From the NCBI GenBank assembly GCA_963828195.1, contig CAWHDT010000005.1:64001-128000 (forward strand): a stretch of 64,000 nt of DNA, given 5' to 3'. The notes below the pieces were generated by a model. It worked only from the letters and a program-made list of their open reading frames with translations. It was not told the origin of the DNA and ran no database searches. Below, piece by piece: positions 3,444-24,066 of the stretch. Source of the DNA: Candidatus Bathyarchaeota archaeon (GTDB lineage: Archaea; Thermoproteota; Bathyarchaeia; Bathyarchaeales; Bathycorpusculaceae). How positions within the stretch are numbered: the stretch's first letter is position 1; the number at the start of each line of letters is the position of its first letter. A program made the translations under genes and the position numbers.

Positions 3444-3517
3444 GGGCCGTTCGTCCAGCCTGGTAAGACGTCGCCCTCACGCGGCGAAGATCACCGGTTC
3501 AAATCCGGTACGGCCCA
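3444..3517 (+). tRNA. tRNA-Val(CAC); integration target of downstream island
   Basis: GGGCCGT...TCGCC CTCACGC GGCGA...ACCGGTTCAAATCCGGTACGGCCCA; last 14 nt repeated at 22770-22783. Confidence 0.95.
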
Positions 3518-3557
3518 TATTAGACTCAGCCCCTGCACGGTCTGAGCCCCAATTTGA
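3504..3557 (+). repeat. attL-like site: 14-bp core plus left inverted arm
   Basis: TCCGGTACGGCCCA then TATTAGACTCAGCCCCTGCACGGTCTGAGCCCCAATTTGA. Confidence 0.8.
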
Positions 3558-4132
3558 TACGCCCACAGAGTTATTCGCCCTTTGGTGTTCGACTCCCATA
3601 GAGACTCAAACTGTTGTAGGTACGAATCCTTTAACGACGCCACTTTCTGTTACATTAATCTGTTTTTTTCCACTCTCCATTTTTCTCCCGCTTAAATAGA
3701 GTCCTTTGATCAAGAAACAATAAAAAAAATAGGGAGCGTATGATTTGGCGGGTCAAAGCACGTTTTGGTCCAGACGCGCAAGGGTTTCAAGTTTGGGCTA
3801 AGAAGCCACCGTGTCCTGCCAATGTTGACTCAGCCAAACGTTTTTCCTTTTAAGGGAACATGCTTCCCGTTCAACTTGTAGCTTTATTTATCGATAAAGG
3901 GCTTTTTGATAGTTTTTTTGTACTTCGATGTTTAATAAAATTTAGCACACAAAAAAGCAAGCATAGTTTGAAGAGAGAGGGTAACGCGCTATTGCAATTT
4001 TACGTTTTTAGGGACTCGATGTTGCAGAAACAATGATGTAATGTTCATGCTTGCTGCCGTAAATGTCGGAGTATTATGCGTTTTTTTTATGCTTCTTTAT
4101 GTGTATTTTCGAATGTTAGTCGAATTGTTTAA

Positions 4133-4295
4133 TCTTCTACTGGAACCGCCGCAACTGGCTTGGGTTATGGTCCACAATTTTCCGTCGTCGGTATAGGTGA
4201 ATACATATTAGTCCATTACCAGACCATAGTAGCGATAGTCTTTGCAATAGCCAGCGATGGACTAGCCTCCGTTCCCACCCTCCAGGAGTCCGAGG
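4133..4295 (+). pseudogene. fragment of a membrane protein gene
   Basis: startless frame reads ...QTIVAIVFAIASDGLASVPTL..., a TM helix pattern; stop codon immediately upstream. Confidence 0.4.
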
Positions 4296-4913
4296 ATGAA
4301 AATTCACAAGAGAGTAACGCACATAGCAATTGAGCAGATGCAGGCGCCAGAAGTAATTGTGGAGGGCAAAAAAGTAAAAATCTGCTTAAATGGGTGCGGC
4401 ACACTTGTACCAGAGGGTAACAAAAAATACTGCAGTTTAAAATGCGCTAACGAATTCTACGCCAAACACAACCAAAAAGGATTACGAGAATACCTTCGCA
4501 AACGTGAACATGCCAAATGCCAAAGATGCGGCTGGAAAAACCCTAAAAAGCCACGACTACCGGCTTACCCCAAAAGACCGGGCTGGGTTGAAGGCGGCGT
4601 AAAAGCACACAGATTAGCAATGCAACAATACGAAAAAGATTATGAAGAAATTAGCAAAAAACGTAAAATGATAATGCGGGAATGGCATAAAACATCTCCA
4701 AAGCCCAGAACATTTGTAGCTGACCACATTATACCCATAGCAATAGGAGGGGACGAATTTGACCTCAAAAATGTTCAATGGCTATGCGCCCCCTGCAACA
4801 AAGAAAAAACAAAACACGACCAAGCTACAATAGCCCTCTACCGCAGACGAATCAAACTAATCGGAACCGGCGGGCAACCTTTAACACAATTCAATTCGAT
4901 TGATAAGAAATGA
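4296..4913 (+). CDS. HNH endonuclease with N-terminal Cys-rich Zn finger
   Basis: CQRC...ADHIIPIAIGG...NVQWLCAPCNKEK (HNH); CLNGC...YCSLKC N-terminal finger. Confidence 0.88.
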   Translation: MKIHKRVTHIAIEQMQAPEVIVEGKKVKICLNGCGTLVPEGNKKYCSLKCANEFYAKHNQKGLREYLRKREHAKCQRCGWKNPKKPRLPAYPKRPGWVEGGVKAHRLAMQQYEKDYEEISKKRKMIMREWHKTSPKPRTFVADHIIPIAIGGDEFDLKNVQWLCAPCNKEKTKHDQATIALYRRRIKLIGTGGQPLTQFNSIDKK

Positions 4914-5327
4914 CTGATTACGAAATGGTTTATACTGAAGTAAAATAGAATCTATGATAGAAAGTATAGGCAGACCGGAACTGGCAAACATCACAGCAGC
5001 TTTCACGTACCAAACGCCTAAAAACAGCTCCATTCACGAAATTAAGCCAAAAAAGAATTAATGACCAGTTATGCGCGTACTCTTCCAGCGTCCACCGTTA
5101 GAGGTTTTAGTAGTTAATTGGTGAAATTAATGAGCCGCCTAAAAATGGAGCAGTATCTTAATGAGCGATTATGACCTTATTGAAACCGGATTAATTGATG
5201 ATTTGCCAGAACGATGGTTTAAATGTGGCATGTGCAACGCTAAAGTCGAAATATCTTATAGAGGTTGAATTCTTTTTGTCGAATGTTATAGTACTAGTTT
5301 GAGGTCGGAGTAAATTGAGTAACCAAA

Positions 5328-5543
5328 ATGAAGAAAATAAAATTAAACCTAATGAAGAAAATAAACCTAAACCTAAAAACGCCTATGTTAAAAGTAATCG
5401 TCATAATCGTAAATTTCATAGACGATAGAGAGAAGCGCGCTTATACGGTTTTATTTGGTCATGTTCACGAAATTATGGTTGAAGGTAGCAAAGTTGTCGT
5501 GGAAGACTGTAAAGCAAAAGTGGATAAACTGCCATGTCAGTAA
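5328..5543 (+). CDS. hypothetical protein (24-bp tandem duplication at 5' end)
   Basis: ORF track; AATGAAGAAAATAAA(A/C)(T/C)TAAACCT repeated twice. Confidence 0.35.
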   Translation: MKKIKLNLMKKINLNLKTPMLKVIVIIVNFIDDREKRAYTVLFGHVHEIMVEGSKVVVEDCKAKVDKLPCQ

Positions 5544-5737
5544 CGGAAAAACGTAGCGGTGTTAATCAGGATGAACGGCGTGCTAAAAGTTTGGCTCTTA
5601 AGTTTTTAGCATCATTTCCTAATTACTCGGTTGCTCTGTTTGAATTAAGGTGGACTGAGTTTTTGAAAGAAAAAGCACGATATGGCAACCCAAAAGATAT
5701 AGCCAATGAATTCCTTAAAAAATATGGAGAACTTTAA
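5534..5737 (+). CDS. hypothetical protein
   Basis: ORF overlapping previous stop, protein-like composition. Confidence 0.45.
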   Translation: MSVTEKRSGVNQDERRAKSLALKFLASFPNYSVALFELRWTEFLKEKARYGNPKDIANEFLKKYGEL

Positions 5738-5930
5738 AATGAGTAACCAAACAAGCCTAAAAAATAGCAAAATAAACATCGAAAGTAATAGGATAGCTTT
5801 TGATGCTAAACTGTCCTATTTCTACACTCATCATCAGAACATATAACATACAACAAATAAAATGCGGGTTGGATCATCCTATGCCGCCCAGTCCGTGGAA
5901 AGCCTTTAGGACAAAAAAGTTGGAGGTTGT

Positions 5931-6221
5931 TTAGGGTTTTGCGATAGTTATTTCCATCGTGGAAACCATTCGGGATCTGTTCTCGCCTTCTCGCGGCGGC
6001 ATCTCGACAGTGCCGATTGCAATGTTTGTCACTTTGAGGTCTTTTACGAAGCGGTTTCTTGTGATTTCTACGGAGTCTACTACAGTGGTTATTGCCTGGC
6101 CTCGAGCCTTTAGGGTGAGTTCTTTATTGGCGCCTGAGGAGAACGCGGTTATGATGGCGAGCACGTAGCTCATCGGCGGCTTGTTCCCGACAAATATTAC
6201 GTCATTAGGTTTTTCGGTCAT
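5931..6221 (-). CDS. albA: DNA/RNA-binding protein Alba
   Basis: IFVGNKPPMSYVLA...LKARGQAI...VSTMEITI; start MTEKPND chosen. Confidence 0.93.
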   Translation of the reverse strand: MTEKPNDVIFVGNKPPMSYVLAIITAFSSGANKELTLKARGQAITTVVDSVEITRNRFVKDLKVTNIAIGTVEMPPREGENRSRMVSTMEITIAKP

Positions 6222-6769
6222 GTTCTTTTCACTTCTGGATTCCAATGGTGCCATCAATTATATAGGTACCGATTCGGCAATGCCGTAAGGCTTTCCAAAA
6301 ATTTACCCCATAGAGGGAAGAAGGTCTTATGGGTTTTACCTTATCATCATAACATATAAAATGAATATAATTTATTTTGACTTGGCTTCTCCCATCCCAG
6401 CCGATTCGCGGAAGGGCTTTGAAGAATACTTACAAGAGATATTCCGAAGTCATTGATTGCTTTTTTTCGCAAAAACTAGCGATTGCTCTACTTACAACGT
6501 ACATTGATAGCGAAATGTCCCACATAAGAAATCTAAGGTTTCCGAAAATCGGAATCTTAATCCAGCGCGCGCTGTTGCCAAAAGCTTCAAGCAGTTGCCA
6601 AAGCCCTGAAATCAACCTTCAGTGAGCGTATCTTCCGCCAAACGCTATGTAGAAAACTGTGACTGCAGCATACAAAGCCAAACTGACGTAAACTGAAACA
6701 TATGCAAAGCCGACAGCTAAAGAGTAGACAATGGGACCCACAAAGACTATTCTGTTTCGATAGGTCGTC

Positions 6770-7289
6770 ACTTCAGGGCTCGGCTACCAAGTTTTGGAGG
6801 AGCGCTTTTCCCGGTCAGATTCCGGACAGGCTTGTGATGGCTGAAGAGCTTAAGGGGGACGTGATCTCTCTCGAAGGTGAAGAGTTGGTGGCCGTGGAGG
6901 TCGGGCATGGCGACTCAGACTACAGTACCTGTCTAAACATCCCCTCCATAGGCCTCGAAGTGGCTGGAGATGTAGCCTACAATGACGTGCACCTGTATTT
7001 TGTCGAGTCGAACCATCTAAAACGCGGCGAGTGGATCTCAGCGCTCGACAAGATCGAATCGCTCAATCCGAGAGCTGTGATCGCGGGACACAAGAGGCCT
7101 GGGAGGGAGGACAGCCCCAAGATCATCGAAGAAACCAGGCAGTACATCCGCGATTTCGACCGCTTGGACGGGGTAACGACGACTTCGACGGAACTCTACG
7201 ACCAGATGCTCAAGCTGTATCCCGATAGGTACAATCCTGGCATGCTGTGGACCTCCGCCCGCACGGCCAAAGGTGGGAGTTCCGTTTGA
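6770..7289 (+). pseudogene. C-terminal part of MBL-fold metallo-hydrolase, N-terminus missing
   Basis: GHGDS...VAGDVAYNDVH...VIAGH motifs; no HxHxDH; GC-rich relative to flanks. Confidence 0.7.
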
Positions 7290-7592
7290 GTGAACTCGTC
7301 AACCGTGCTGCGATGCTACTGGCGCGCGCCCACCCGGACTCGACTGCAGTTAGTTTTTAATGGTAAAAAGGTGCTGGGATCCCCCGTCCAACACCTTTGA
7401 ATATCTCCAATAATACGTATGAAAATGTTATCCGACCGTTTGAGAAGGATTAATTCCTTTGTTTTTAGTGAAGGTTTTGAACTTAAATGGGTTTAGGAAC
7501 GGGCAGCCCCCAGCATGTTCATTTGTTTAATCGCTTTATAGGGCAGTTGCGTAGTATAGGGCAGTAACGTTATGATTAAATGGTGATGGTAA

Positions 7593-7880
7593 ATGTCGGA
7601 AAAATCAAAAATTGTTTTCGTTGGAAAGAAAATGCCAATGGACTATGTTCTCGCTATTATTACAGGTCTGTCGGCGAGCGATGCTAAAGATATAACCTTG
7701 AAGGCGAGAGGACAAGCAATAACCACTGCTGTTGACGCGGCTGAAATAGCGAGAAATCGCTTCCTAAAAGACTTGAAAGTAAACAAAATCGTGATAGGAA
7801 CCGAGGAGATGCCGCCAAGAGAGGGCGAAACCAGAGCACGGATGGTTTCAACAATTGAAATAATGCTTACAAAAGAGTAG
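7593..7880 (+). CDS. albA: DNA/RNA-binding protein Alba (second paralog)
   Basis: VFVGKKMPMDYVLA...LKARGQAITTAVDAAEI...VSTIEIML. Confidence 0.93.
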   Translation: MSEKSKIVFVGKKMPMDYVLAIITGLSASDAKDITLKARGQAITTAVDAAEIARNRFLKDLKVNKIVIGTEEMPPREGETRARMVSTIEIMLTKE

Positions 7881-8132
7881 GAATACTTTGCGAAACACGC
7901 GCTAAGTAAACGTAAAGGCGCGGCACGTTTTGGTCTTCTACCGTTCGATTGAAAATCCCTTTGAAAAACTAAGACAACGTCGCTTTCTCTTATTAGACGC
8001 GCCACAGATTATGTGGCAGTAGTTAAAGATGGGAAAGTCCAATTTAAAGAGTACATTTATGAAAACGATGACTTTGGTGAATTGCTAGATAGGGACGTGG
8101 CAACATGACGTTGAATAGAAGTAAACCTTGGT

Positions 8133-8333
8133 GTGACTATGAAATGTCCCGCTTGCAATAAAATTCTTAAACGAATAGAGAGTGTATGCGGCGAGTACAT
8201 CTGTATTAATCCTGAATGCCTTGAAAACAAGAAAGCACATGTGCAGGGATGCGCGGAGTTTTACGGGCTTACCCAAGCAGACATAAACGCAAACTATCAC
8301 ATAGCACTTACCAAAAATAGGACGCAGAAATAG
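8133..8333 (+). CDS. small Zn-ribbon protein
   Basis: CPAC...CINPEC. Confidence 0.55.
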   Translation: MTMKCPACNKILKRIESVCGEYICINPECLENKKAHVQGCAEFYGLTQADINANYHIALTKNRTQK

Positions 8334-8385
8334 CCAAACACCAAAAGAAGGTAAATAAAATATAAATAAGGAGAATAAACAACCT

Positions 8386-8529
8386 GTGAAAAACTTGAAT
8401 AACGTTTTAGGTCCAAGGTGTTCTTATTGTGGTAGCACTCGCCTTGAAGAAGATGAAGATGTCGTTAAGTGTCTTGATTGCGGCATGGGGAATTATAAGA
8501 AAGGTAGGCATAAGAAGTATTGTAAATAA
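8386..8529 (+). CDS. 47-aa Zn-ribbon microprotein (TFIIB-ribbon-like), not in ORF track
   Basis: VKNLNNVLGPRCSYCGSTRLEEDEDVVKCLDCGMG...; AGGAG upstream. Confidence 0.55.
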   Translation: MKNLNNVLGPRCSYCGSTRLEEDEDVVKCLDCGMGNYKKGRHKKYCK

Positions 8530-8540
8530 TTGCTTAGGTA

Positions 8541-8762
8541 ATGATATGGAAAAAAATGGAAAATTTTTACATGTTCGAATCTAATGGAAGACCACGTAGT
8601 AATTGGGGAAGCAATCAACCTTACGAGTGCCTTCGATGCGGATCAACCACGATGGGTGAAAACATAGAGGAGAGAAACGGCTTAATCAAATGTATCGTAT
8701 GCGGATACAGAGTTTTAAAGAAGACGAAACCGCCAGTAGTAAAGAGAGTTCTCGCAAGATGA
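8541..8762 (+). CDS. rpoP: DNA-directed RNA polymerase subunit P (Rpo12)
   Basis: YECLRCG...IKCIVCGYRVLKKTKPPVVKRVLAR; start uncertain. Confidence 0.85.
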   Translation: MIWKKMENFYMFESNGRPRSNWGSNQPYECLRCGSTTMGENIEERNGLIKCIVCGYRVLKKTKPPVVKRVLAR

Positions 8763-9035
8763 TATAAGAGCTTTGCATCAAAAATGTTTCTTTTAAGCCA
8801 ATATAACTACTGTCTTTTGTACGTTTTTGGTTTTTTTGCCTAATTAAAAAGTCTTTAATCTGCACAGCATAGAAATAGCCAACAAACACTCAAATCCTTA
8901 GAAAGACGCATAAACACGTTGGAACAGGCGCTTTCTGGCTCAGAAACAAGAACCAAAACAAACGAAAATACATTCCTCCGAGAACATCAGGATTTATAAT
9001 AAAGTTCAGCGTATTAATATTACAGATGGTGCATT

Positions 9036-9242
9036 ATGGCTGTTCTTGAATGCCCATCCTGCAATGAAATCCTTGAAGTCGAAGCGCCTGATAAACTCCA
9101 CTCAGCATTCTCATCAGCAAAGCCAACACAAAAAAGTTCTCATGGCAAAATCATTCAAAAGAAAGTAAGGTGCAAAAACCAAGATTGCAAAAAAACATTC
9201 ACGGTCTACTGGTATGCTCCACTAGAATACTTCTGCAGATGA
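9036..9242 (+). CDS. small Zn-ribbon protein
   Basis: CPSC...CKNQDC; TATA-like TTTATAA and GGTG upstream. Confidence 0.65.
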   Translation: MAVLECPSCNEILEVEAPDKLHSAFSSAKPTQKSSHGKIIQKKVRCKNQDCKKTFTVYWYAPLEYFCR

Positions 9243-9475
9243 TGAGCTTCAAATCTGATACTATCGATTAAGTAGCGTTGGCTTTGAAAATTAAGAGAGC
9301 TTATTATTTCAGTTCTAAGTAAAACGTGAAGTTTTGTATTTATGCTAACCAGGAAGGCTCAGCGGGCTTCGCCCGTTTCGCACGAACGCCAACCTAATCA
9401 CTCTTTCTTGGTGAAGACCCTGATAAGGCTGAATCGCCGTCAGCATAAATTGACGTTTATCTGTCCCTTCCGAAA

Positions 9476-11644
9476 TTACACTACAAAAGGCGCGGGCTTC
9501 TGCGGCCTTCGAACCTGATTCATAAAGCTCCTATACCAATTCTCAATTTCTGGCGATATGCTCGGCGGAACCTCCTCCATAGCTTTCTCAAAATCGCTTA
9601 AGGTAACCTCTTTTGCGTTGCTGTCTCTTCTTAAAGCGTTCATGGCGGCCTCCCTGCATACGGATGATATATCGGCGCCGGAGTAACCTTTCGTCATGCG
9701 ATACTCCTTGATGTCCACATCATTTGATAGTGGCATGTTCATTGTATTAATCTTGAAGATTTCAAGTCTGGCCGCTTCGTCGGGTTCTGGAACATAAATT
9801 AGCCGATCGAACCTGCCTGGTCTTAATACGGCTGAGTCGACAATATCGGGCCTATTTGTCGCAGCTATAACTATAATGTTTTCTAAGGGCATTATTCCAT
9901 CCATTTCTGTTAAAAGCTGGCTGATGACGCGTTCAGTTACTCCGCTGTCGCCGTCACCCAGTCCCCTCCTTGGAACAAGAGAGTCAACTTCATCGAAGAA
10001 TATGACCGCTGGCGAAGCCATTCTAGCCTTCCTGAAGATCTCTCGAATAGCCTTTTCAGACTCGCCAACCCACCTAGAGAAAACCTCCGGGCTCTTAATC
10101 GAAATGAAGTTTGCCTCGCTCTCAGTTGCAACAGCCCTAGCCAGCATTGTCTTCCCACACCCAGGCGGGCCTATTAACATTATACCTTTAGGCGGCTGAA
10201 TCCCCATTCTCTTGAAGACTTCAGGATTTTTCAGTGGCCACTCAACAGCCTCCTTTAACTTTTCTTTAACCTCCGCCAAGCCGCCCACTTCATCCCAATG
10301 AACAACTGGAACTTCCACAGCAATCTCTCTCATAGCTGTAGGCGTAATTTCCTTGAATGCGTTCAAGAAATCATCTATCTGAACCTCCATCTTCTCCAGG
10401 ACGTAGGGCGGTATTTGCTCTTCCGTCAGATTTATCTCGGGAAGATACCTAAGTAGAGCTTTCATAGCTGCCTCTCTGCACAGGGCGGCCAAGTCAGCAC
10501 CCGTGTAACCGTGCGCTCGCTCAGCAAGCACCTTTAAGTCAACATCACGGCCTAAGGGCATACCTCTGCTATGAATCAACAATATTTCATGACGCCCCCG
10601 CTTGCCTGGGGTCCCTATCTCTATCTCGCGGTCAAACCTCCCAGGCCTCCTGAGAGCTGGATCCAAGGCATTCGGCCTGTTTGTTGCGCCTATTACTATG
10701 ACATTTCCTCTACCAGCCAATCCGTCCATGAGAGATAGAAGCTGAGCGACAACCCTTTTCTCCACTTCACCTGTAACCTCCTCACGTTTGGGCGCGATGG
10801 AGTCCAACTCGTCTATAAGTATGATGCTCGGGGCGGTTTTATGAGCCTGTTGAAATATTTCTCGAAGCTTCGCCTCCGACTCCCCATAGAACTTACTTAT
10901 TATCTCAGGCCCGTTTATTGAGGAGAAGTTTGCGTTCGACTCATTCGCTACTGCTTTAGCTAGGAGTGTCTTTCCGCAGCCGGGTGGGCCGAGCAGTAGA
11001 ACCCCTTTTGGAGGATCTATTCCAAGCGTCTGGAAAATCTCGGGATGCCGCATTGGAAGTTCAACCATCTCCCTTATGCGTTGAATCTCCTCTTCCAAAC
11101 CTCCTAAGTCCTCATAGGTGATGCGTGGTACACCTTTGGGTTCCGCCGCAGGTTCAGTCAATATCTGCAATGTAGTATCGTGGTTCATCTTTACTATTCC
11201 TTGGGGCTGCATCTTCGCTACAGTGAACTGGACAGAGTGACCAAGCATCATAACGGACGTCGTGTCTCCCTCAACAAATGTCCTATCGATAAGTCTGTTC
11301 TTCACAAAATTTGCAAAGTCTTCGTCAACGTTCAATCGCATTTCTACTGGAGCAAGCACTATGCTCATGGCATCTTTAACTTCAGCCTTGCGAACTACAA
11401 CGTACTCGTTTATTAATACGCCAGCATTTTTACGTAAGAACCCATCGATTCGCATAACGTTTGGATCCTGTTCTTCAGAGTCCGCTGGCCAAGCGATCGC
11501 CGACGTTTTTTTCTTCCCTGAGAACTCTATTACGTCTCCAGATGAAACCCCTAACTTTTGCATTGTACTCTGGTCTATTCTAGCGATTCCTCTAGCCACA
11601 TCTCTCTGTCTGGAATCCAGAACTTTCAGCTGAACTTCGCTCAA
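9476..11644 (-). CDS. cdc48: CDC48/VAT family AAA ATPase
   Basis: N-domain plus two AAA modules, GPPGCGKT x2, DELD/DEVD, RPGRFDR x2. Confidence 0.97.
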
Positions 11645-11851
11645 TTTTCAACGCTCCATTAAACATATTTTTGATAAAAGCACTAAATCCGTTCTCTCAA
11701 CATCATTAGAACATATTGTGATTTGATAAGGGTGTCAGGACACTTTCTTAGACATAAACGTTGCATTTTTCTGAAAGTGAAGCTATTTTTCAGCGCACAC
11801 GCTGATTAGTTTAATTCAATTTTTCCCTGTTGTTATTTGGCTTCACTCTTC

Positions 11852-11998
11852 TTAGTGGGTTTTATTTTCGCCCCTCTTTAGGGTGTCCGTGTAGGTTTTC
11901 TTTTTCACGCTCTTTCTAATCGGGCAATTAAGCCGAATAGACGATTTACACCTGCGGCAGTTCTTAACTAAACCTACTCTTAATTGGCACATTTTCAT
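11852..11998 (-). CDS. 48-aa Cys/Lys-rich microprotein
   Basis: MKMCQLRVGLVKNCRRCKSSIRLNCPIRK...; GAGGT upstream. Confidence 0.4.
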   Translation of the reverse strand: MKMCQLRVGLVKNCRRCKSSIRLNCPIRKSVKKKTYTDTLKRGENKTH

Positions 11999-12675
11999 TT
12001 ACCTCTTTTCCTCTGTTTATACTCATTGCTCGTATGTTTATACCCATTGCTTTTTTAGCTTAATTTGTTATTTTTGCAATAGTTAAGCAATTAATTAAAA
12101 TTAACTATTCACTATATTTGCCAAAATCAGATTATCATTTGCCTTGGTGACTTGGTTTAGGCTTTTCTGGTTGCTCTATCTCACTACCCTATGGGTTACA
12201 GCCATCACCTTTATCCTCGGTTTTCCGTATTGAGGTTTCAACTGTTCACTTTTGCCTTTGCTTATAAATTCATTTAAACATGTGTTATTGCGCAAACTAC
12301 TGTCTAAATTAACAGCTAAAACCTTGCCCATTACTTTCTCTTCTATTTCTTTTACTTTAGTTCCCTTCTTTGGACTATCATGGCTCCATTTCTTTTCCTA
12401 ACGTAACTTGCCCCACATTTGTTTGAATGGTCCACTTTTTTTGGATCATACGTTTCAAATACGATACCACAGGGGCAGGTTCTAATGAGAACTTCATTAC
12501 TTAATCTCTCAGAGTTTTCCATACCACTCTACCCAACAATATTTACATTCAAGAACTTATGAACAGCCTTCTCCACATCATTATACTCAACGATTAAAGA
12601 TAATAATTCCTTCTTTTCCTCTTCAGGATTCCATGGATGCTCTTTTTCGTTAGTTCTTCTCTGGAATAGTAAGTT

Positions 12676-13594: not shown

Positions 13595-13663
13595 TTACCA
13601 GTCCTCTTCTTCCCAATCTTCTTCAGTTAACTCTTCTTCCCCTTCTTCCTCTTCCTCAAACAT
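13595..13663 (-). CDS. 22-aa hyperacidic peptide MFEEEEEGEEELTEEDWEEEDW
   Basis: ATG-TAA ORF; TTTATAAG TATA-like box ~45 nt upstream. Confidence 0.45.
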   Translation of the reverse strand: MFEEEEEGEEELTEEDWEEEDW

Positions 13664-14061: not shown

Positions 14062-14238
14062 ATGAAAGATTTTAAATGCCCAATATGTGGTGCACCAACG
14101 GAAAAGGTTTGGGAAAATGCAATCAAAACAAGATACGGAATGAGATGCACGAAAGGCCACAAAAAAACAGGTGGCAAATCAGGTGATTCAATAGAGTACC
14201 CTACATTTCTTGTTCCAAGAGAAGAACTTGTCAAGTAA
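14062..14238 (+). CDS. 58-aa Zn-ribbon microprotein, not in ORF track
   Basis: MKDFKCPICGAPTEKVWE...MRCTKGH; GGTGA SD. Confidence 0.6.
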   Translation: MKDFKCPICGAPTEKVWENAIKTRYGMRCTKGHKKTGGKSGDSIEYPTFLVPREELVK

Positions 14239-14662
14239 AGAATAGACGCTTTTTTAAGTGAAAAACATGTTACGTTCAGTTTCCTATCCAAAGTTGAAGA
14301 ACAGATGCCTTAACTATATCGAGAAGAATAAGAACTTTAAGAAGGTTAGAACATGACGGACAGCTATAAAAAAGAATTGATGAATTAATAGCAAAATAAA
14401 AAGTTCAGCGTGAAGTAATCAGTGAAACCCCCGAGTGCAAAACCGTCAAAATACATAGTAGCATAGATGGTAAAAGATGCCAAGTTTGCGATAAAAAACT
14501 TAACCCCAATAAAATATTTTGGTACAAACATGACAGAGGAATTACATCAACAAATCCACGCAAAATGGCTATATATACCCGTTTCAGGCGCTAATTTTGA
14601 AGCGGATTTTGTATCTTCAACGAGACGGCAACTAAAGATAATCCCTTTTACATTGGACCTCG

Positions 14663-14971
14663 TTAAGGCTTTAATTCTCTGTCTTCACTGTAGTCTCTGT
14701 CCTCGTGGACTTCCTCTTCAGCTTCGTCTTCGCTTTCTTCTTCAGCCTCACTTGCTTCTTCGCCTTCAGCACTTGCTTTATCTTCAGCTTCACCCTTTGG
14801 TGGATAAGCCTTATCCAACCAAATTTCAAACTGTGCTTTATATTCGGAGTTAGAAAAAGCCCAATCACACAATCCACCAATAACCTTGCCCACGTCAATT
14901 TCATGTTCTTCAGCTAAACGTTTCAAGAACTCTTCCCAATTTGCAGGTAAAGACACTGGAAAACTACTCAT
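14663..14971 (-). CDS. hypothetical protein, possible ribbon-helix-helix N-terminus, acidic tail
   Basis: FPVSLPANWEEFLKRLAEE pattern; E/D-rich C-terminus; GGAGA SD. Confidence 0.6.
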   Translation of the reverse strand: MSSFPVSLPANWEEFLKRLAEEHEIDVGKVIGGLCDWAFSNSEYKAQFEIWLDKAYPPKGEAEDKASAEGEEASEAEEESEDEAEEEVHEDRDYSEDRELKP

Positions 14972-15056
14972 AAAACAATCTCCGCTATCTTGTTAGTGGC
15001 AAGTTATATTTAAGTTTCAAAGGCACTTGAAAAATTGTTTTTTGGAATGGATGTTT

Positions 15057-15245
15057 CTACCTTTGCTCTTTTAACAGTTGCAGTCGTTTGGCGACTTCTT
15101 TGGAGATCTTTTCTAAACCTTGCGCTAATTCTTCGCGATCGACTTCGTCTAAAGGGTACCATTTCCCTTCCTTGTCGATGAAGACAAGTTCCACTTTTCT
15201 TTTTATCATTAATTTCACCTTATTAATCAAATGCTTATTGTTCAC
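15057..15245 (-). CDS. hypothetical protein
   Basis: ORF track; charged helical composition. Confidence 0.45.
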   Translation of the reverse strand: MNNKHLINKVKLMIKRKVELVFIDKEGKWYPLDEVDREELAQGLEKISKEVAKRLQLLKEQR

Positions 15246-15401
15246 GAATCGCTTAAACTTTTCTTGCCCAATGGCTTCAATCAGATAATGTACACGAGTT
15301 AACAGAGAATTACCCTCAAAGCCAAATCCCGAGAAGAGTTAACAGAACCAAACAAAGCAATATTCTCAAGTGTAATCTTGAGAAACGCTTATCGATATTA
15401 A

Positions 15402-15970
15402 ATGGCAACTTCGAATAAATGGTGTGTAGCCGTTTTCAAATACAATCCTGACTCGGTAAAAAATGTGCTTGTTGAATTCTACAGGTTTGCTGATGACCTA
15501 AAAGGAGTGCGAAGTCTACATTTCTTGATCAGAGATAGAATTGACGATGAGTTTTTTTTTAGCTTCAGAGTAATGGTTGAACCTAAATTCAAAGAAATAG
15601 TCAAAACCAAATTAGCAAACAAACTGGGTATATTACTATCCGAAGATAAGTATGCCGTTGATCCAGCTGCGAAAAACAGTCTTGAGCAGTATGTTGCTTG
15701 GCTACCTGAAAAGAGAATTGCGAATTTTGGACAAAACAAGTTTGACCAATTCATTGATCTTCTCAAAAACCTGAGCACACTTGTTGTTCAGCTAATTGAG
15801 AATAACTACTTTGCCTCAAATGAGAAGAGTTGAACTAGCACACGTCACATCTTGGATGCCTGGATGAACCGAATATGGTCTGCTTAGTTCCTCAGGAATG
15901 GAAATAGGGTACTGCGACCGCTTGGACGACAAGTATTGTTCATATTTGAGACAGGACTTCCCAAAATCAA
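15402..15970 (+). pseudogene. disrupted hypothetical gene
   Basis: frameshift near 15825 (YFASNE/RVELAHVTSW) and in-frame TGA at ~15865 before TEYGLLSSSGMEIGY. Confidence 0.6.
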
Positions 15971-16049
15971 GTGACCAAAAGAAACCACAAATCATACCTA
16001 AAGACAAGTTTGCTATTATTATGCGCCAAAACTGTGCAACGCAGATGGC

Positions 16050-16357
16050 TTATTTTAGCAGTTTTATGCTTTCTTCTAGACTCATGGCTAGCTTGATTTC
16101 GCTGGTGTTCCAAGCCATCCATTTTATCATGTCGGGCTCCATGGAGAATTTCTGGAGGCTTTCTGAACTTGGGGCTTTATACACCCAAACAGTCAAATGT
16201 TCAGGAATTACAGTCCAGACTCCGATTCTTTTGATGCCATGTTTCTTTTCCAAGTCACCCAATTTTTCAGGTAATCCAATGTTATTTTTTTCATTTTCTC
16301 ATTATTTATTGGACAGTTCTCAGGAGAATGCTTAGAAACTATCAAAAAAATAGCCTT
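16050..16357 (-). pseudogene. disrupted small hypothetical gene (ferredoxin-like fold, DUF3303-like)
   Basis: upstream frame FLIVSKHSPENCPINNEK joins ORF-track frame by a 1-nt shift in an A-run at ~16263; start codon appears lost. Confidence 0.55.
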
Positions 16358-16543
16358 AAAACAACGCTCTCAAAAGAGAGAAGACTCAAAACTAAGATAT
16401 AAACCATAAGCAGACTTGACATTCTATTTAAAAATAGTTTTGTTTAGTAGAAATAGACTCAGAATAGTGCGAAATTAGGCTCGGAGCAAAACTAGGAAAG
16501 CCTTAACTGAATCATACCTGTATTGATATATGAGGAATAGTTT

Positions 16544-18193
16544 TTGTCTTCGCAAGCAGGTGGCGTGCCTGTTCTAATTATGAGAGAAGGATCTGGATCC
16601 AGAGGAAAGGATGTCCAGCGTAACAATATTATTGCGGCCAAAACAATAGCGGAAGCCGTAAAAAGTTCGTTAGGCCCCAAAGGAATGGATAAAATGTTGG
16701 TGGATAGTTCTGGCGATGTAATCATTACCAGTGATGGAAGAACTATCCTAGACAAGATGGATATTGACCATCCAGCTGCTAAGATGATGGTTGAAGTAGC
16801 TAAGACCCAAGACGCGGAAGTAGGAGACGGAACCACCACGTCGGTCATAGTTGCCGGCGAACTCTTAGGAAAAGCTGAAGACTTGGTAAACAAGGGCATA
16901 CACCCCATCCTAATTGTCGAAGGATACAGCAAAGCAGCTGATAAAGCTCTTGAAACACTTGAAAAAATTGCGTTTTCCGTTAATCCTACGGAAAAAGAGT
17001 TTTTGATGAAGGTCGCGGCAACCTCTATGGCCAGTAAGCTGGTAGCTACGAACAAAGAACAGCTTGCAGACATAGTCGTCAAAGCTGTTTTGCATGTCGC
17101 CCAAAAAGTAGGAGACGACTACACAGTAGACTTAGACGATATCATGGTGGAGAAAAAGCCAGGCGAATCCGTTGCAGAAACCACACTTATCGAAGGGTTA
17201 GTTCTTGACAGAGAAGTTGTTCACTCAGACATGCCTAAACGGGTGGAAAAAGCAAACATAGCATTATTAGAAAGCGCGCTTGAAATTGAAAAAACCGAGT
17301 TTGACGCTAAAATCAACATTGAACGCCCAGAACAGATCCAATCTTTCCTACAAGAAGAAGAAAATATGCTCAAAGCAATGGTTGAAAAGATAGTTGCCTC
17401 AGGCGCCAACGTTGTTTTGTGCCAGAAAGGCATAGACGACATTGTCAAGCACTTCTTAACTAGGAAAGGAGTCTTAGCCGTACATCGAGTCAAAGAGTCG
17501 GATATGAAGAAACTATCAAAAGCCACCAGCGGAAAAATTGTCAATAACGTAGACAGCCTCTTAACAAGCGACTTAGGCTTTGCAGAAATCGTTGAGGAAA
17601 GGAAGATCGGCAACGACAAGATGACCTTCATCGAAGGATGCAAGAACCCGCACGCAGTAGCTATCCTCATACGAGGTGCAGATAAACGCTTTATTGATGA
17701 AGCTGAACGATCACTTCACGATGCACTATGCGTAGTCCAAGACGTAGTTCAGGAGCCCAAAATCGTTGCGGGAGGGGGTGCCCCAGAAATGGAAATCGCT
17801 AGAGCACTAAGAAGCTATGCTGAAACCCTGCCAGGCAGAGAACAGCTTGCCGTCCGAAGCTTCGGCGAGGCCATGGAAATTGTGCCACTGACGTTGGGTG
17901 AAAATGCCGGTCTCGATCCCATAGATCTGCTATTAGAGCTCAGAACCCGCCATGAGAAAGGCGAAAAATGGGCAGGCGTAGACGTTTTGGAAGGAAAAAT
18001 CAAAGACATGAAAGACCTAGAAGTCTACGAGCCTTTAGCTGTTAAGAAACAGATCATCAAGTCTGCCACCGAAGCTGCCACAATGATACTGAGGATTGAT
18101 GACGTCATCGCCTCTGGAAAGATGAAAGCTCCACGTATGCCTCCTGGCGGAAGGCCAGGCGGCGGCTACGGCGGCATGCCCCCACAATATTAA
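16544..18193 (+). CDS. thermosome (group II chaperonin) subunit
   Basis: [32 protein letters not shown] tail. Confidence 0.97.
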   Translation: MSSQAGGVPVLIMREGSGSRGKDVQRNNIIAAKTIAEAVKSSLGPKGMDKMLVDSSGDVIITSDGRTILDKMDIDHPAAKMMVEVAKTQDAEVGDGTTTSVIVAGELLGKAEDLVNKGIHPILIVEGYSKAADKALETLEKIAFSVNPTEKEFLMKVAATSMASKLVATNKEQLADIVVKAVLHVAQKVGDDYTVDLDDIMVEKKPGESVAETTLIEGLVLDREVVHSDMPKRVEKANIALLESALEIEKTEFDAKINIERPEQIQSFLQEEENMLKAMVEKIVASGANVVLCQKGIDDIVKHFLTRKGVLAVHRVKESDMKKLSKATSGKIVNNVDSLLTSDLGFAEIVEERKIGNDKMTFIEGCKNPHAVAILIRGADKRFIDEAERSLHDALCVVQDVVQEPKIVAGGGAPEMEIARALRSYAETLPGREQLAVRSFGEAMEIVPLTLGENAGLDPIDLLLELRTRHEKGEKWAGVDVLEGKIKDMKDLEVYEPLAVKKQIIKSATEAATMILRIDDVIASGKMKAPRMPPGGRPGGGYGGMPPQY

Positions 18194-18346
18194 CACCCCT
18201 TAACAACAATTACAAAGATCCTATTTTCAAAAAAACCCTATTAACTGGGTTAATATTCGAGGTAACTTTTTCATCCATAGTCCTTAACAGGGCAGATCTT
18301 TTCAAAAACGTACAACAGTTAATTTTTTAAAAGAAAATGGGGGTGT

Positions 18347-19993
18347 TTATTCTTCACCTTCGGAGCCGCCGGGCATTCCACCGGCTGGTCCGCCTTTTGG
18401 CGCTTTGGATGTTATGACATCGTCAATGCGTAGTATCATGGCTGCTGATTCTGCTGCGGATTTGATTGCTTGTTCTTTAACGGCGATCGGTTCGATTACG
18501 CCGTTGTCGAGGCTGTTCTGCACTTTGCCCGTGAAAACGTTTATGCCCATGTATTTGCCGGTTTCTTTGTCGTGTGCTGATCTCAGCTCCACAAGTAAAT
18601 CTATTGGATCTAGCCCAGCGTTTTCTGCGAGTGTGCGAGGGATTACTTCCATTGCATCTGCGAATGCTTCAACAGCTAATTGTTCTCTTCCACCGACTTT
18701 TGTTGCGTACTTCCGTAGCTCTTTGGCTACTTCGATTTCTACTGCTCCTCCGCCGGCAACGATTTTGCTGTTTTCAAAAACGTCTGAAACAACTGAAAGC
18801 GCGTCGATAAGTGCTCTTTCAGCTTCATCCACCATTCGTTCAAGCCCTGCTCGTATCAATATAGCTACTGAATGAGGATCTTTGCATTTCTCAACGAAGA
18901 TCATTTTGTCGTCGCCGATTTTGCGCTCTTCAACCAAGCCGGCAAAACCCAAGTCTGTCGTCTTCAAATCGTTCAAATTGGAGGTAACTCTTCCGCCTGT
19001 TGCTCTTGCGAGTTTCTCCATGTCTGACTCCTTGACTCGTCTAGCAGCCATTATTCCTTCTTTAGATAGGTAGTGTTGAACCATATCGTCTAATCCTTTC
19101 TGGCAGAACACAACATCTGCGCCTGAAGCTTTGATCTTGGTTACCATGTCTTTGAGCATGCTGTCCTCTTGGTCTAGGAAAGCTTTCATTTGGTTCGGAT
19201 CGCGTATGCGTATTTCGGCGCTCATTTCGGTTTTCTCAATTTCCAATGCAGAATCCAAGAGTGCGATTTTCGCGTTTTCTTTCTTTTTGGGCATCGTCGG
19301 ATGGACGATTTCTTTGTCAATGATTATGCCTCTGACGAGTTGCGTCTCGATGAGGCTTTTTCCCGTCTTCTTTACCAGCTGTATGTTATCTATGTCTGCT
19401 ATCATCTTGTCTCCACGTTTCTCGGCTATCTGCTTTACAGCTTCTATGGCGATTTCCGCAAAGTGTTCTTTAGCACCGCCCACCGCTTTGCTGCCCATGG
19501 ACGTCAAGGCGACTTTCATCATTGTTTTTTGATCTTCTACGTCGATGGGCACAGCGTTTTTCTCTATGATTTCGATTGCTTTTTGAGTTGCCTTGCGGTA
19601 TCCGCTGACAAGTATTATTGGGTGAATATTTTGGTCCAACAGTTCTTCAGCTTTTTTGAGAAGTTCACTGGCCAACACCACGGCGGTTGTGGTTCCGTCG
19701 CCTACCATGTCGTCTTGTGTTTTAGCGATTTCAACCATCATTTTTGCTGCTGGGTGTTCAACGTCTATTTCTTTTAGGATTGCTGCGCCGTCGTTTGTTA
19801 TTGTTATGTCGCCTAGGCTGTCGATGAGCATTTTATCCATGCCCTTTGGGCCTAAGGTGGTTTTGAGTACTTCGCCGATTACTCGTGCAGCCATGATGTT
19901 GTTTCTCTGGGCTTCTTTACCCCTGCTTCGAGAGGTCCCCTCCTTCAAAATGAGTACTGGTTGACCACTTTGGGTTTGAGTTAAATATGCCAA
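18347..19993 (-). CDS. thermosome (group II chaperonin) subunit, second paralog
   Basis: [28 protein letters not shown]. Confidence 0.97.
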
Positions 19994-20326
19994 GTTATTC
20001 TCTCCTTAATTTTATTCATTAATAGTCTTTTTTTAGCATAGTAAGCGTTTTTGTGATTCGCAGGAAACGCCCAAATCTCAGGCGCGCTGAATAAGATGGA
20101 TTTGACCAGTAAGAGACTGGAGACTAAACATTTTCCACTGTTCCAAAACCGCTCACTCTGTAATGTAGATATCGTCAAACAGGGATTTAAACCCGTTTAG
20201 CAATTACAGCGCGATTTCTAACTAACTATTTAGTTTTAAACTGTACACGTTGATTTTTCAAAAATGCGCGTCCATATTGAAGTGCATAGGTTATCTTATT
20301 CAGCAGAAGTTTTCTAAAGTAACCAT

Positions 20327-20515
20327 TTAACTATCGTCGTGCATAAGAAAAAGTGGTTTAAGGGCTTCTTCTTTCATAATTTTTTTGATTGCAGCATCAT
20401 CATCAAAGTTCTCGCCATTTGTGGCACTCACGTGGATCTCTAATTCTTTCAGAATAAGATGAATTTCATTATTAGTACAATCGACGCAAAGCACTTGTGC
20501 CTGTTTCAAGATCAT
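20327..20515 (-). CDS. hypothetical protein
   Basis: ORF track only. Confidence 0.3.
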   Translation of the reverse strand: MILKQAQVLCVDCTNNEIHLILKELEIHVSATNGENFDDDAAIKKIMKEEALKPLFLMHDDS

Positions 20516-20539
20516 TTACTTCCATAATTACAATAGACA

Positions 20540-20914
20540 CACCGAGATGCCGAACGACTAATATTGGGAGCTGAAAAATACATTTGGCTTATCGGACAAA
20601 GACCGTTAAGCAACCTGGACGCAAAAACACTCGATATGGTCCAAAAAGGTGTTACGGTTAGACTGTTATTTGATGAAAGCAACCGCAAATTCTACGAAAT
20701 ATTCCAGAGATAAAAGATCATTTTGAAAAGAGAGTAATTCAAGTTGTTCCAGCAATTGTTAATCAGTGAAAAAATTGCGGGTATTAACATGCTTTCATTC
20801 GACGGCAGAGCAGACAGCGCAGTATTTTATGGAAAAGACCCAAAGTTACTAAAGATGGGCAAACGATTTATTTCTCTATTATTGGGAACTGGGAAAGAGA
20901 TGCTATTCAACATA
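20540..20914 (+). pseudogene. remnant of C-terminal effector domain of an archaeal HTH regulator (DUF1724/FilR1-like)
   Basis: stitched reading AEKYIWLI...KGVTVRLLF/.../ISEKIAGI...FDGRAD...GKDP/WANDLFLYYWE with three frameshifts. Confidence 0.6.
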
Positions 20915-21026
20915 ATGTAGTTCTCTATTGTTTGCGGATCGAGCCGGACTAATCCTCGCGGCACAACCGTAAACTTAAAAACAGGTCTTATGAGAGCCCT
21001 CAAAGAGACAGGTTTTGAACCCGTTC

Positions 21027-22667
21027 GAGAGTGTGTGAAAAGTCTCTTTTTTGCGTCTATTTACCGTTAACCTTAAATCTAGACTGGCTTTAGAGCAACA
21101 GAAAGAGCTGAAGAGCCATGAGCGAACACGTAACAGGCCATTACAGAAATCAATCAGTTCTCTTCCCAAACATACTCGACGATTACGTTGACAAAGAGAA
21201 CCCGGTTCGGTTCATTGACGCCTTTATCGATAGCCTCAACTTAGAGAAGCTCGGATTCAAGCACTCAGTACTGGCAGACACAGGAAGACCATCTTATGAT
21301 CCTTCAGACCTGCTAAAACTCTATCTTTATGGTTACCTCAACCAAGTGAGATCAAGCAGAAAACTCGAGAAAGAGTGCCACCGCAATGTCGAGGCCATGT
21401 GGCTCATGAAAAAGTTGGCTCCAGACTTCAAAACCATTGCTGACTTCCGAAAGAATAACGTAGAATGCATCAAGGGAGTGTTCAAGGAATTCGTTTATCT
21501 TTGCAAAAGCCTGGACCTTTACGGTGCTCAGTTAATAGCTATTGATGGAACCAAATTCAAAGCGGTAAACTCAAAAAGCAACAATCTCAACGAGAAAACA
21601 GTCGCTTTGAGGCTCAAACAAACAGAAGAAAAGATAGCAGAGTACCTCAAAGAAATGGACCATAACGACACGGCTGACTCAGATGAAGATGAAAGCATCA
21701 ATGTAGATGATCTCAAGGAAAAAATATGCAAGCTTGAAGAGGAAAAGCAGCGATATGAGCAGATTCAAGGCCAAATGAAGGCAACTGGCCAGAGGGAGGT
21801 TTCACTTGTTGATCCTGATAGCCGTTTGATGCGGGTAGACAGTCAAAGGCTTGAGGTCTGCTACAACATTCAGACGTCTGTGGATGCGAAGCAGCATTTA
21901 ATTGTGGATTATGATGTTATCAATAATTCGACTGATCACCATCAGCTAGCGACTGATGCTAAGGCTGCAAAACAGATGCTTGGTGTTGATCGGTTGGAAG
22001 TGTTGAGTGACAAAGGATTCTACGTTGCGAATGATCTCGTTAAATGTGAGGAAGCTGGGATAACGGTGTTCATGCCGATTCCAGCTTTCAATCCTACTAA
22101 GAGTGCGGGTGTACCGGAGCCTGAGTTTGGTTCTGAAAGGTTTATTTTCGATGGGGTCAAGGACGTTTATGTTTGTCCTGGTGGGAAGGAACTGGGGTTT
22201 TGGAAGGGAAGTTTCAAGGGTAAGCCTGAATGTGGTAGGCGTTATAGAACGGTTTCCTGTTCTCGTTGTGATTCTAGAAGCAGGTGTACTCGAAATAGGC
22301 GGGGCAGGATAATGGTGAGGTGGGAATATCAGGATGCGGTTGACAGGCTTAGAGCAAGGCTTGTGAGTTCTGAGGGAAAAGAGAAGTTGCGTTTGCGTCG
22401 GATGTTGGCGGAGCATCCGTTTGGAACAATGAAGCGGGCATTCAATCAGGGTTATTTGCTTTTGAAAGGTTTGCGGAAGGTCAAAGGAGAAGTAGGATTT
22501 ACTATGCTTGCGTACAACATAAGGCGGGTCTTCAACATTCTTGGAGTTAGAGCGCTAATGGGTTTGATGAAGACGTAAAAAAGAGAAAACAAGTGAATAA
22601 TGATCCATGACAATAGCTTGAGCGCCAGGTATTCTTAGACTTTAGCTCTGAGTTTTGACACAGTCTG
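21027..22667 (+). mobile_element. IS1182-family insertion sequence
   Basis: imperfect TIRs GAGAGTGTGTGAAAAGTC (21027-21044) and GAGTTTTGACACAGTCTG (22650-22667), 14/18 match; 4-bp target duplication GTTC (21023-26, 22668-71). Confidence 0.92.
21118..22578 (+). CDS. IS1182-family DDE transposase
   Basis: GRPSYDP..LLKLYLYGY...SSRKLE...PDFKTIADFR, IDGTK, DKGF, EHPFGTMK. Confidence 0.95.
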   Translation: MSEHVTGHYRNQSVLFPNILDDYVDKENPVRFIDAFIDSLNLEKLGFKHSVLADTGRPSYDPSDLLKLYLYGYLNQVRSSRKLEKECHRNVEAMWLMKKLAPDFKTIADFRKNNVECIKGVFKEFVYLCKSLDLYGAQLIAIDGTKFKAVNSKSNNLNEKTVALRLKQTEEKIAEYLKEMDHNDTADSDEDESINVDDLKEKICKLEEEKQRYEQIQGQMKATGQREVSLVDPDSRLMRVDSQRLEVCYNIQTSVDAKQHLIVDYDVINNSTDHHQLATDAKAAKQMLGVDRLEVLSDKGFYVANDLVKCEEAGITVFMPIPAFNPTKSAGVPEPEFGSERFIFDGVKDVYVCPGGKELGFWKGSFKGKPECGRRYRTVSCSRCDSRSRCTRNRRGRIMVRWEYQDAVDRLRARLVSSEGKEKLRLRRMLAEHPFGTMKRAFNQGYLLLKGLRKVKGEVGFTMLAYNIRRVFNILGVRALMGLMKT

Positions 22668-22736
22668 GTTCGGGTATGGGGATGGGCAGCTTCAAACCAT
22701 GGTCAAAATTCGCAAAATATCCTTATTCAGTAAGTT

Positions 22737-22786
22737 TGAGATAGGGACTCATACCGTGTACGGGGTAAGTCCGGTACGGCCCACCA
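22737..22786 (+). repeat. attR-like site: right inverted arm, core and displaced tRNA CCA end
   Basis: ...GGGACTCATACCGTGTACGGGGTAAG TCCGGTACGGCCCA CCA. Confidence 0.8.
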
Positions 22787-24005: not shown

Positions 24006-24066
24006 AAAATTTTTAATTTTACCAACTTATTCTTTTAATTTAAACTGTTAGCATTACGTGTAAGCC

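Follow-up and report, generated by a model that had tools for sequence, protein, structure and literature searches.

The DNA considered here (hereafter the window) is a stretch of 64,000 nucleotides from a Candidatus Bathyarchaeota archaeon of soil (contig CAWHDT010000005.1, positions 64,001 to 128,000), whose genome is designated G000; coordinates are positions in the window unless a contig is named. The element in question occupies 3518-22783 (repeat-to-end interval C5:67504-86786) and is probably a 19.3-kb non-autonomous integrative island resembling the cis-mobilizable elements (CIMEs), of the tyrosine-recombinase type and served by an integrase acting in trans. Its integration target is a tRNA-Val(CAC) gene (3444-3517, plus strand; called by ARAGORN, 58.5 bits with Rfam), the sole tRNA-Val(CAC) of the genome, whose 3' end now forms attL. 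The last 14 nt of this tRNA, TCCGGTACGGCCCA, form the proximal direct repeat, or attachment (att) core (3504-3517, plus strand, with CGGCCCA at 3511-3517), and in the window they recur exactly only at 22770-22783, where CCA directly follows; this distal repeat and the original encoded CCA make up attR (22770-22786, plus strand), and the chromosomal flank begins at 22787. A third copy with one mismatch is the tail of a tRNA-Val(GAC) gene (1724-1737, minus strand), so that three matches were seen where 0.09 were expected by chance, a number reached by none of 100 shuffles.

Inverted arms are found at the two ends of the island. Positions 3518-3557 and the reverse complement of 22737-22776 are identical at 28 of 40 positions in an ungapped alignment, a match equalled by a single one of 2,000,000 random 40-mer pairs drawn from the window (about 5e-7; binomial P 4e-9), and 24 of 33 positions are still identical when the 7 nt within the direct repeat are left aside. 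These arms are just the outer part of longer conserved end modules, the left one about 95 nt and the right one about 110-150 nt long. The left end module (class A arm; 3518-3605, plus strand; nhmmer profile match 3511-3605) holds the motif CGGTCTGAGCCCC at 3538-3550, 20 nt from the core, and the right end module (class B arm; 22668-22776, minus strand; nhmmer match 22678-22782, resuming to the left of an insertion sequence (IS) at about 21010-21027) holds CGGTATGAGTCCC on the minus strand at 22744-22756, again 20 nt from the core. When 21 family arms are aligned without gaps (mean column identity 75%), the 7-nt core (CGGCCCA or its complement), a 5-nt spacer that begins with TA and the motif all keep the same register; this places the centre of the dyad on CGGCCCA, which, as judged from the sequence, is likely to be a 7-bp overlap. 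A preliminary description of this DNA had reported the tRNA 3'-end repeat with its distal CCA, the 28/40 inverted arms and a palindrome centred exactly on CGGCCCA, and these are borne out by the two exact copies, the comparison with resampled 40-mer pairs and the register of the family arms, respectively.

The left flank (1-3517) and the right flank (22787-30000) were searched in 40 other genomes of the genus, from which 15 tRNA-Val(CAC) loci were then fetched. The tRNA reads ...CGGCCCACCA in 12 of these 15 relatives, and the right-flank genes stand 18-732 bp past the tRNA, on the same strand, in 12 genomes; in G038, G009, G031 and G049 the tRNA tail with CCA runs directly into sequence homologous to window 22830-22895. 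These empty sites imply that an insertion brought in the 19,266 bp between the repeats and that the distal copy keeps the original encoded CCA of the tRNA. The preliminary description had taken that copy for the original tail and had proposed a search for an empty site in close genomes, which was found as tRNA-Val...CGGCCCA-CCA continued by the homologue of the window from 22787 on. In G039, G047 and G042 the same place is taken by different insertions, of 2.5-13 kb, and the site is therefore a hot spot. A related island of 34.5 kb is present at the same tRNA in G094 and shares the Cdc48 (94%) and TATA-binding protein (TBP; 95%) genes, and over its final ~1 kb the island matches G026 at 97-99% identity, against 75-77% for the adjoining chromosome; both findings point to mobility. 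Contigs of four public sequencing runs were also compared with the window. In one contig, from run X2, 3517 is followed directly by 22838, with just 24 letters to one side of the joint; it was rejected as an empty site of this strain, this overlap being too weak. As a separate observation on the target gene, the D-arm of the window tRNA-Val(CAC) (3452-3466, TTCGTCCAGCCTGGTAAGACG) differs at about five positions from the TTAGTCTAGCTGGCTAGGACG common to all 15 fetched relatives, and the other 53 nt of the gene are the sequence shared by most of them.

The ends of the island belong to a family. A consensus of both window arms, with two mismatches allowed, was used to scan 120 genomes of the Bathyarchaeia genus and gave 41 matches in 26 genomes, against none for the reversed pattern used as a control; in a scan of one genome per prokaryote species, matches were obtained only in records titled Bathyarchaeota. 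Three pattern scans of viral contigs for the arms gave no match, and a search of the arms against Rfam at E<=1 gave just sub-threshold chance matches. Class A arms, in 9 of the 120 genomes, follow the tail of tRNA-Val(CAC) or tRNA-Val(TAC). The class B arm is a module of about 110-150 nt, present in 33 of the 120 genomes in about 70 copies, whose outer end abuts the reverse complement of a tRNA-Val(CAC) or tRNA-Val(GAC) tail, often with CCA. A class C left end (TTTT..TATTTTGCTRTAAATTCGAG) stands in for class A in G107, G039 and G094:C1, the right end being paired overall with three unrelated left ends (class A, class C and an integrase-side attL). The repeat follows the isoacceptor, with TCCGGTA.. 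at CAC sites and CCGGTC.. at GAC sites.

Direct tandem arrays of class B copies are frequent. Behind the tRNA-Val(GAC) of G094:C1 stand three units that each terminate in an arm B, and the final repeat has CCA; stacking of this kind was found in relatives (G094:C1, G049:C7 and G077:C9), and the window island is single. The units are multi-gene, of 0.5-34 kb, with a variable cargo made up of cellular genes in every case: histidine kinases, NHL and PQQ propellers, alcohol dehydrogenases, DUF4386 proteins, a P-type ATPase, a ClC channel, heliorhodopsin, an ABC transporter, LSM proteins and glycosyltransferases. The joined arrangement of arm B, core and arm A was found by a metagenome scan on one contig of 1,043 bp (L086), which reads ...GGGACTCATACCGTGTAGGGGATAAGCCAGGTACGGCCCACATTAGACTCAGCCCCTGCACGGTCTGAGCCCC... 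and in which the joined form adjoins sequence 86% identical to window 15805-15991; it is either an excised circle or a tandem junction. The joined palindrome drawn in the preliminary description thus exists in nature on L086, and one of its two readings of the arms, as those of a recombination site, agrees with a family of ends at tRNA-Val genes; the search across Bathyarchaeia that it had suggested, for the arm consensus and for nearby recombinases, gave this arm family and a linked family of 435-aa integrases (see below). As to the origin of class A, the inner part of the module (window 3575-3620; also L043, L038 and L039) was observed to resemble a tRNA 3' fragment (GGTTCGAGTCCC..). In G095, the class A profile matches at the position that is occupied, in the homologous locus of G001, by a tRNA-Arg(CCG) with an integrase next to it. 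Two old att sites may have been combined in this module.

A recombinase was searched for inside the island. The six-frame search of C5:67504-86786 with hidden Markov models (HMMs) gave no match to PF00589, PF16795, PF00239, PF01867 or PF03175. Five tyrosine recombinases are encoded in G000, all outside the island and none lying within 8 kb of a tRNA; the 5 genomes searched gave no serine recombinase, the Cas1 genes of these genomes are located elsewhere than in islands, no protein-primed PolB was found in a search of the islands, and no integrase gene was found on the 5' side of the tRNA-Val genes, the place equivalent to attI. These translated HMM searches, which had been suggested beforehand, agree with the earlier statement that integrase, Cas1 and PolB are lacking inside, and with the view of the element as non-autonomous. 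With no integrase inside, the island was classified as a non-autonomous derivative. Two other sources of an enzyme were tried and rejected. For a split integrase of the SSV (Sulfolobus spindle-shaped virus) type, no long frame crosses the rebuilt junction (longest stop-to-stop stretch 134 codons, with the IS removed in silico) and PF16795 matches nothing in the island; for a recurrent protein adjacent to the arms, clustering of the open reading frames (ORFs) of five islands and of those lying up to 6 kb from 33 arm B copies gave only IS transposases and cargo.

A candidate enzyme was found in other genomes. Its first member, a 435-aa ORF with a weak PF00589 match, lies in G003 at a distance of 1.4 kb from an orphan class A arm. 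The family (about 435 aa) is present in 24 of the 120 genomes and absent from G000 at E<=1e-30, where the closest proteins are at most 24% identical; with no close copy in G000, the island is probably immobile there now. Twenty further loci were fetched, making 21 in all. ARAGORN calls a same-strand tRNA 60-70 bp upstream in 12 of them, for Val(GAC) in two cases and otherwise for Pro, Ala, Gly or Arg; in another 8 a tRNA 3' end can be recognized by eye, and L114 alone is laid out differently. In G036 (integrase gene at L095:558-1853, minus strand) and G049, which hold the two Val(GAC) integrase loci, attL reads CGGCCCAC-TCCATCTT-CGGTCTGAGTCCCC; the sequence after the tRNA is TCCATCTTCGGTCTGAGTCCCC in G036, and that of G049 differs at two positions before the motif. 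The motif GGTCTGAGTCCC occurs at both of these loci and in both arm classes, and in other subfamilies of the integrase GGTTCAGAACC is found at the equivalent place. In G049, a degraded integrase gene lies in a 5.9-kb unit whose far end is an arm B, the sole examined arm unit with a recombinase gene inside. The family has invariant R156, K201, R275, H302 and Y310, 7 of 17 members match PF00589 (best E 5e-7), and the only PDB match of the family profile is the XerA entry 4a8e (E 0.078), in which the GLR and (H/Y)xLR boxes are aligned; on these features it is a divergent tyrosine recombinase. Another integrase family, of about 400 aa, was considered and rejected: one copy lies by a class A arm in G026:C7, the family is present in 101 of the 120 genomes with no consistent link to arms, and a copy between two tRNA-Val genes of G007 lies between empty sites. 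Members of this ~400-aa family stand directly upstream of a tRNA on the same strand, namely tRNA-Arg(TCT) in G026:C7 (L054:154-1356) and tRNA-His in G055:C17, a layout that, in the two loci looked at, is the reverse of that of the ~435-aa family.

The right end module is interrupted by an IS1182-family IS (21028-22667, plus strand) with a DDE transposase gene at 21118-22578 that scores 387 bits against NF033551 (cut-off 270). A transposase above the NCBIfam cut-off, imperfect terminal inverted repeats (TIRs) and a short target duplication, here the 5-bp GTTCG at 21023-21027 and 22668-22672, are the features by which elements of this family are recognized, and this IS has all three. Its bounds are set by the right end of G026, which is 97-99% identical and lacks the IS, and contigs of public runs X2 and X3 (Logan) join 21022 directly to 22668, that of X2 being identical through attR to 22844. 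The IS, absent from G026 and from these contigs, is therefore polymorphic and a later insertion inside the right end module, and did not form it. The right arm was also tried as a transposon end and rejected: three 66%-identical copies of the IS define other ends, no transposase lies beside arm B in 20 other loci, and G026 and the public contigs have the arm without the IS. IS1182-family elements recur in att structures (the window, G107:C3, G039:C9 (L063, L067/L068), L105, L113 and L089), and three arm B copies are split by them at the same place of the hairpin (profile positions ~21-28). The window copy lies in a second small palindrome of the right module, and several IS ends (..CACAGTCTG) abut tRNA 3' fragments starting at the T-arm, which suggests that IS1182-family elements prefer these att sites as targets. 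In the preliminary description of this interval the lack of an integrase was correctly stated; the IS1182 element and a housekeeping-like cargo were left unmentioned.

The arrangement of the ends can be explained as follows. A circular form of the island would carry an attP made of the right module (arm B), the core TCCGGTACGGCCCA and the left module (arm A), and conservative site-specific exchange with the identical tRNA tail would have rebuilt the tRNA and moved the original tail with its encoded CCA 19 kb away. Each arm has one inward-facing CGGT(A/C)TGAG(T/C)CCC, 20 nt from CGGCCCA; these would be the putative integrase-binding sites, with CGGCCCA as the overlap. An integrase of the G036 type would bind the CGGTMTGAGYCCC motif, and the ~435-aa family, a candidate by its association with the motif, is the likely enzyme. 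The island would then be a decayed or cargo-only derivative, mobile only when a cognate integrase is supplied in trans. The insertion, the empty sites, the family of ends, the tandem arrays, the joined form and the association of the integrase family with the motif are direct observations; the acting protein, the positions of the strand cuts and any present mobility of the island are inferred. Several observations weigh against this explanation. No integrase was found in or beside the islands of G000 or G094, and among the loci compared no single contig carries an intact integrase, an arm B and a clean tRNA-Val repeat, the G036 copy running off its contig and the integrase of G049 being degraded, with its arm B at a variant repeat. 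Enzyme and site are linked by association only, the Val-linked integrase lacks a Pfam match at E<0.1 and the match to 4a8e, at E 0.078, is weak. At 40 nt, the symmetric arms exceed the usual length of core sites, the isoacceptor-matched repeat (GTA versus GTC) is equally explained by a target duplication, and no circle junction of the window island was seen in the contigs of the four runs, although contigs drop rare forms and this is not evidence of absence.

Two transposition or folding mechanisms and the lack of any mobile element were considered as alternatives to integration by a tyrosine recombinase. A non-autonomous TIR transposon, either casposon-like or of the DDE type, would have the arms as TIRs and the 13-14-bp or 7-bp repeat as target-site duplication. 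Casposons make 14-15-bp duplications at tRNA ends, and the island shares with them its inverted ends and the presence, at a tRNA 3' end, of a direct repeat of about 14 bp; a repeat that follows the isoacceptor and the presence of Cas1 genes elsewhere in these genomes would also fit. However, the Cas1 casposase and PolB that characterize casposons are not inside the island, and no Cas1, protein-primed PolB or shared transposase was found in any examined island; a homologue of the window transposase lies beside the arm in none of 20 arm loci, and the only DDE gene of the window is that of the later IS, which has a 5-bp duplication of its own. The left ends lack the conservation of TIRs, and the same right end occurs with three unrelated left ends, which an enzyme acting on TIRs would not tolerate. 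The window combines inverted arms with a 14-bp repeat; with a duplication of 13-14 bp the arms are 4 nt out of register, and the register is exact only around the 7-nt CGGCCCA. Considering also the tyrosine-recombinase family linked to the motif, a TIR transposon is unlikely, and the 7-bp duplication with 40-bp TIRs envisaged in the preliminary description lacks support on account of the missing shared transposase, the three left-end classes and this link.

The other mechanism, also raised in that description, is a folded site comparable to integron attC or CTX attP, in which a single-stranded DNA hairpin would be used by a host or integron-type recombinase and the tRNA-Val genes would be platforms for cassettes. 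The joined form of L086 folds at -17.9 kcal/mol, compared with -9.96 +/- 2.37 for shuffles (z -3.35; none of 200 shuffles as good), and cargo-only units that end in a conserved imperfect palindrome are stacked in direct tandem next to a fixed site, with no recombinase gene in any examined unit except the degraded one of G049. Stacked cargo and palindromic or target-repeat ends are indeed shared with integron cassettes and with the ssrA-linked islands of Dehalococcoides in the available text on the latter. Single arms, however, fold no better than shuffles (z -0.46 and -0.23), and in the arm hairpin 92% of the cells are pairable with no covariation over the shuffled control (460 to 500 of 500 shuffles as high). 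Integron sites have a compensatory structure with poor sequence conservation and an integrase gene beside attI; here the columns are 75% identical, so that sequence and not only structure is conserved, and no integrase gene lies 5' of the tRNA-Val genes. Many family members, those with class C or integrase-side left ends, are unable to form a long palindrome with arm B, and the units differ from integron cassettes in being multi-gene, with no adjacent platform integrase and no covariation indicating a folded site. Since single arms do not fold beyond the level of shuffles, covariation is lacking, sequence is kept and class C and integrase-side left ends cannot pair with arm B, the arms are read, from their sequences, as double-stranded protein-binding sites, and a folded site is considered as improbable as a TIR transposon. 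That the repeat and arms arose by chance or are terminator-like hairpins, and that the 19 kb are ordinary chromosome, is scarcely credible. The cargo looks like housekeeping genes, the GC content is not sharply different from that of the flanks and pieces of the interval occur elsewhere in the G003 chromosome without arms, but empty sites in at least 12 relatives already contradict such a reading, as do the arm match (P about 5e-7), the 41 occurrences of the arm motif against none in the control, the other genome copies of all the cargo genes and the existence of the joined form.

Integration in trans by a tyrosine recombinase can be compared with known systems. Lambda-type sites have a 15-bp core with a 7-bp overlap between inverted core sites, and tRNA-Val(CAC) ranks among the archaeal integration targets used most often, according to the available text of PMC8371274; a dyad placed on CGGCCCA fits such an overlap. 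Like the tRNA-targeting elements of tyrosine integrases (lambda and P4), the island is inserted in a tRNA 3' end with the tRNA rebuilt, the core doubled and inverted sites around a 7-nt centre. Its conserved arm regions are about 100-150 bp per side, about 250 bp in all, and the lambda attP is of similar size. Unlike these elements, it has no integrase gene, long symmetric arms of 40 nt at 70% identity and a motif 20 nt from the core, and its candidate integrase is divergent, of about 435 aa, with many members below the Pfam cut-off. An integrative island is recognized by an empty site in relatives, by a repeat equal to the target 3' end at both junctions and by a rebuilt target, all of which are found here, and by its own integrase beside the att site, which the window island lacks. 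Non-split archaeal integrases are of the pNOB8 type. With the SSV-type elements the island shares an archaeal tRNA target and an apparent lack of an intact integrase in the integrated state, and it differs from them in having no int fragments at its ends and no frame over the junction.

The closest resemblance in organization is to the CIMEs. These are att-flanked elements that have lost their integration and transfer genes and undergo tandem accretion, as described for ICESt1/ICESt3 of Streptococcus thermophilus in the available text of PMC5704250, and tandem islands linked to ssrA are described for Dehalococcoides in that of PMC3146451. In the island, integration and transfer genes are absent and attL and attR are kept; tandem accretion at the target 3' end is found in relatives, and the ends are shared with integrase-bearing relatives. 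The differences are an archaeal host and the absence of a conjugation module anywhere in the arm family. The literature on mobile elements of Bathyarchaeia that was found concerns viruses and proviruses of the class, and no tRNA-Val island family was found in it.

The cargo of the island consists largely of extra paralogues of cellular genes. An HNH endonuclease gene (4296-4913, plus strand; Pfam PF14279/PF01844 and HNH families of PHROGs) has no nucleotide match in the G094 island and was the only match in a PHROGs search of 10 small island ORFs. It is followed by a gene for an Alba chromatin protein (5931-6257, minus strand; PF01918) and by a second Alba-like ORF (7593-7880, plus strand) that clusters with it by blastp. 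An extra Cdc48/p97 AAA+ ATPase (9476-11644, minus strand; CDC48_N, CDC48_2 and two AAA domains) is 94% identical to the copies of the G094 island and of G004, and 66-69% identical to the other examined copies of the genus and to the copy on contig C7 of its own genome. An extra TBP gene (12676-13236, minus strand; PF00352, two repeats; 73% identical to the copy at C5:769208) and two extra full-length thermosome subunit genes, at 16544-18193 (plus strand; PF00118, 630 bits; 67% identical to the copy at C1:109953) and at 18347-19993 (minus strand; PF00118, 610 bits; 78% identical to the copy at C5:863457), complete this set, all the cellular cargo genes having further genome copies at 67-78% nucleotide identity. 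The 34.5-kb island of G094:C3 also holds genes for transcription factor B (TFB), a Vps4-like AAA ATPase, an SPFH protein and an OB-fold protein resembling single-stranded DNA-binding proteins. In the same island (L051:14259-17630, L052:4212-5174) a full-length 1123-aa homologue of RNA polymerase subunit B was observed, alone, next to Cdc48.

The conservation of the ends over many cargo-only units suggests continued use rather than simple decay. A broader reading, offered tentatively and rather doubtful as a whole, is that in this Bathyarchaeia genus the three tRNA-Val genes are stacking platforms at which cargo-only modules of 0.5-34 kb, ending in the same arm of about 150 bp, would be captured and stacked, and from which they would pass between species, by the action in trans of a divergent tyrosine-recombinase family usually encoded elsewhere, moving spare genes for TBP, TFB, RpoB-like proteins, Alba, LSM, Cdc48 and thermosome subunits. 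If true, such platforms would be an archaeal system half-way between CIME accretion and the integron. The presence of extra Cdc48, thermosome, TBP and Alba paralogues on a mobile module bears on how archaea gain multiple general transcription factors and chaperonin subunits, and calls for caution in the use of these genes as vertically inherited markers. Mobile elements of Bathyarchaeia being poorly known, the locus is useful in that its att site is defined, relatives give a clean control with an empty site, the joined form occurs naturally and there is a candidate integrase family, whose subfamilies are found at tRNAs for Pro, Ala, Gly, Arg and Val; this is enough for the design of a recombination assay and possibly for an integration tool for an uncultured lineage.

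Other traces of rearrangement were observed at tRNA genes. Just upstream of the target, a tRNA-Ser(TGA) gene ends at 3218 and homology to the tRNA-Val(CAC) upstream region begins at 3224 (window 3219-3224). The tRNA-Ser(TGA) block and the tRNA-Val(CAC) upstream block are 20-66 kb apart in G003, G004, G013, G038 and G039, being inverted in four of them, which implies a rearrangement breakpoint exactly at a tRNA 3' end. Downstream of the tRNA-Val(GAC) gene (1723-1799, minus strand), ABC-transporter genes at 1-1460 are 85-93% identical in many relatives and present in two copies in several genomes, one such copy adjoining an arm B copy in G039:C11; this region is probably a second island. Finally, at G000:C7:200002-203610 a decayed class A arm (nhmmer E 9e-4) stands behind the tRNA-Val(TAC) gene of the genome, with a 12-nt repeat of the tRNA tail 3.5 kb downstream, and this locus may be a small relic island.

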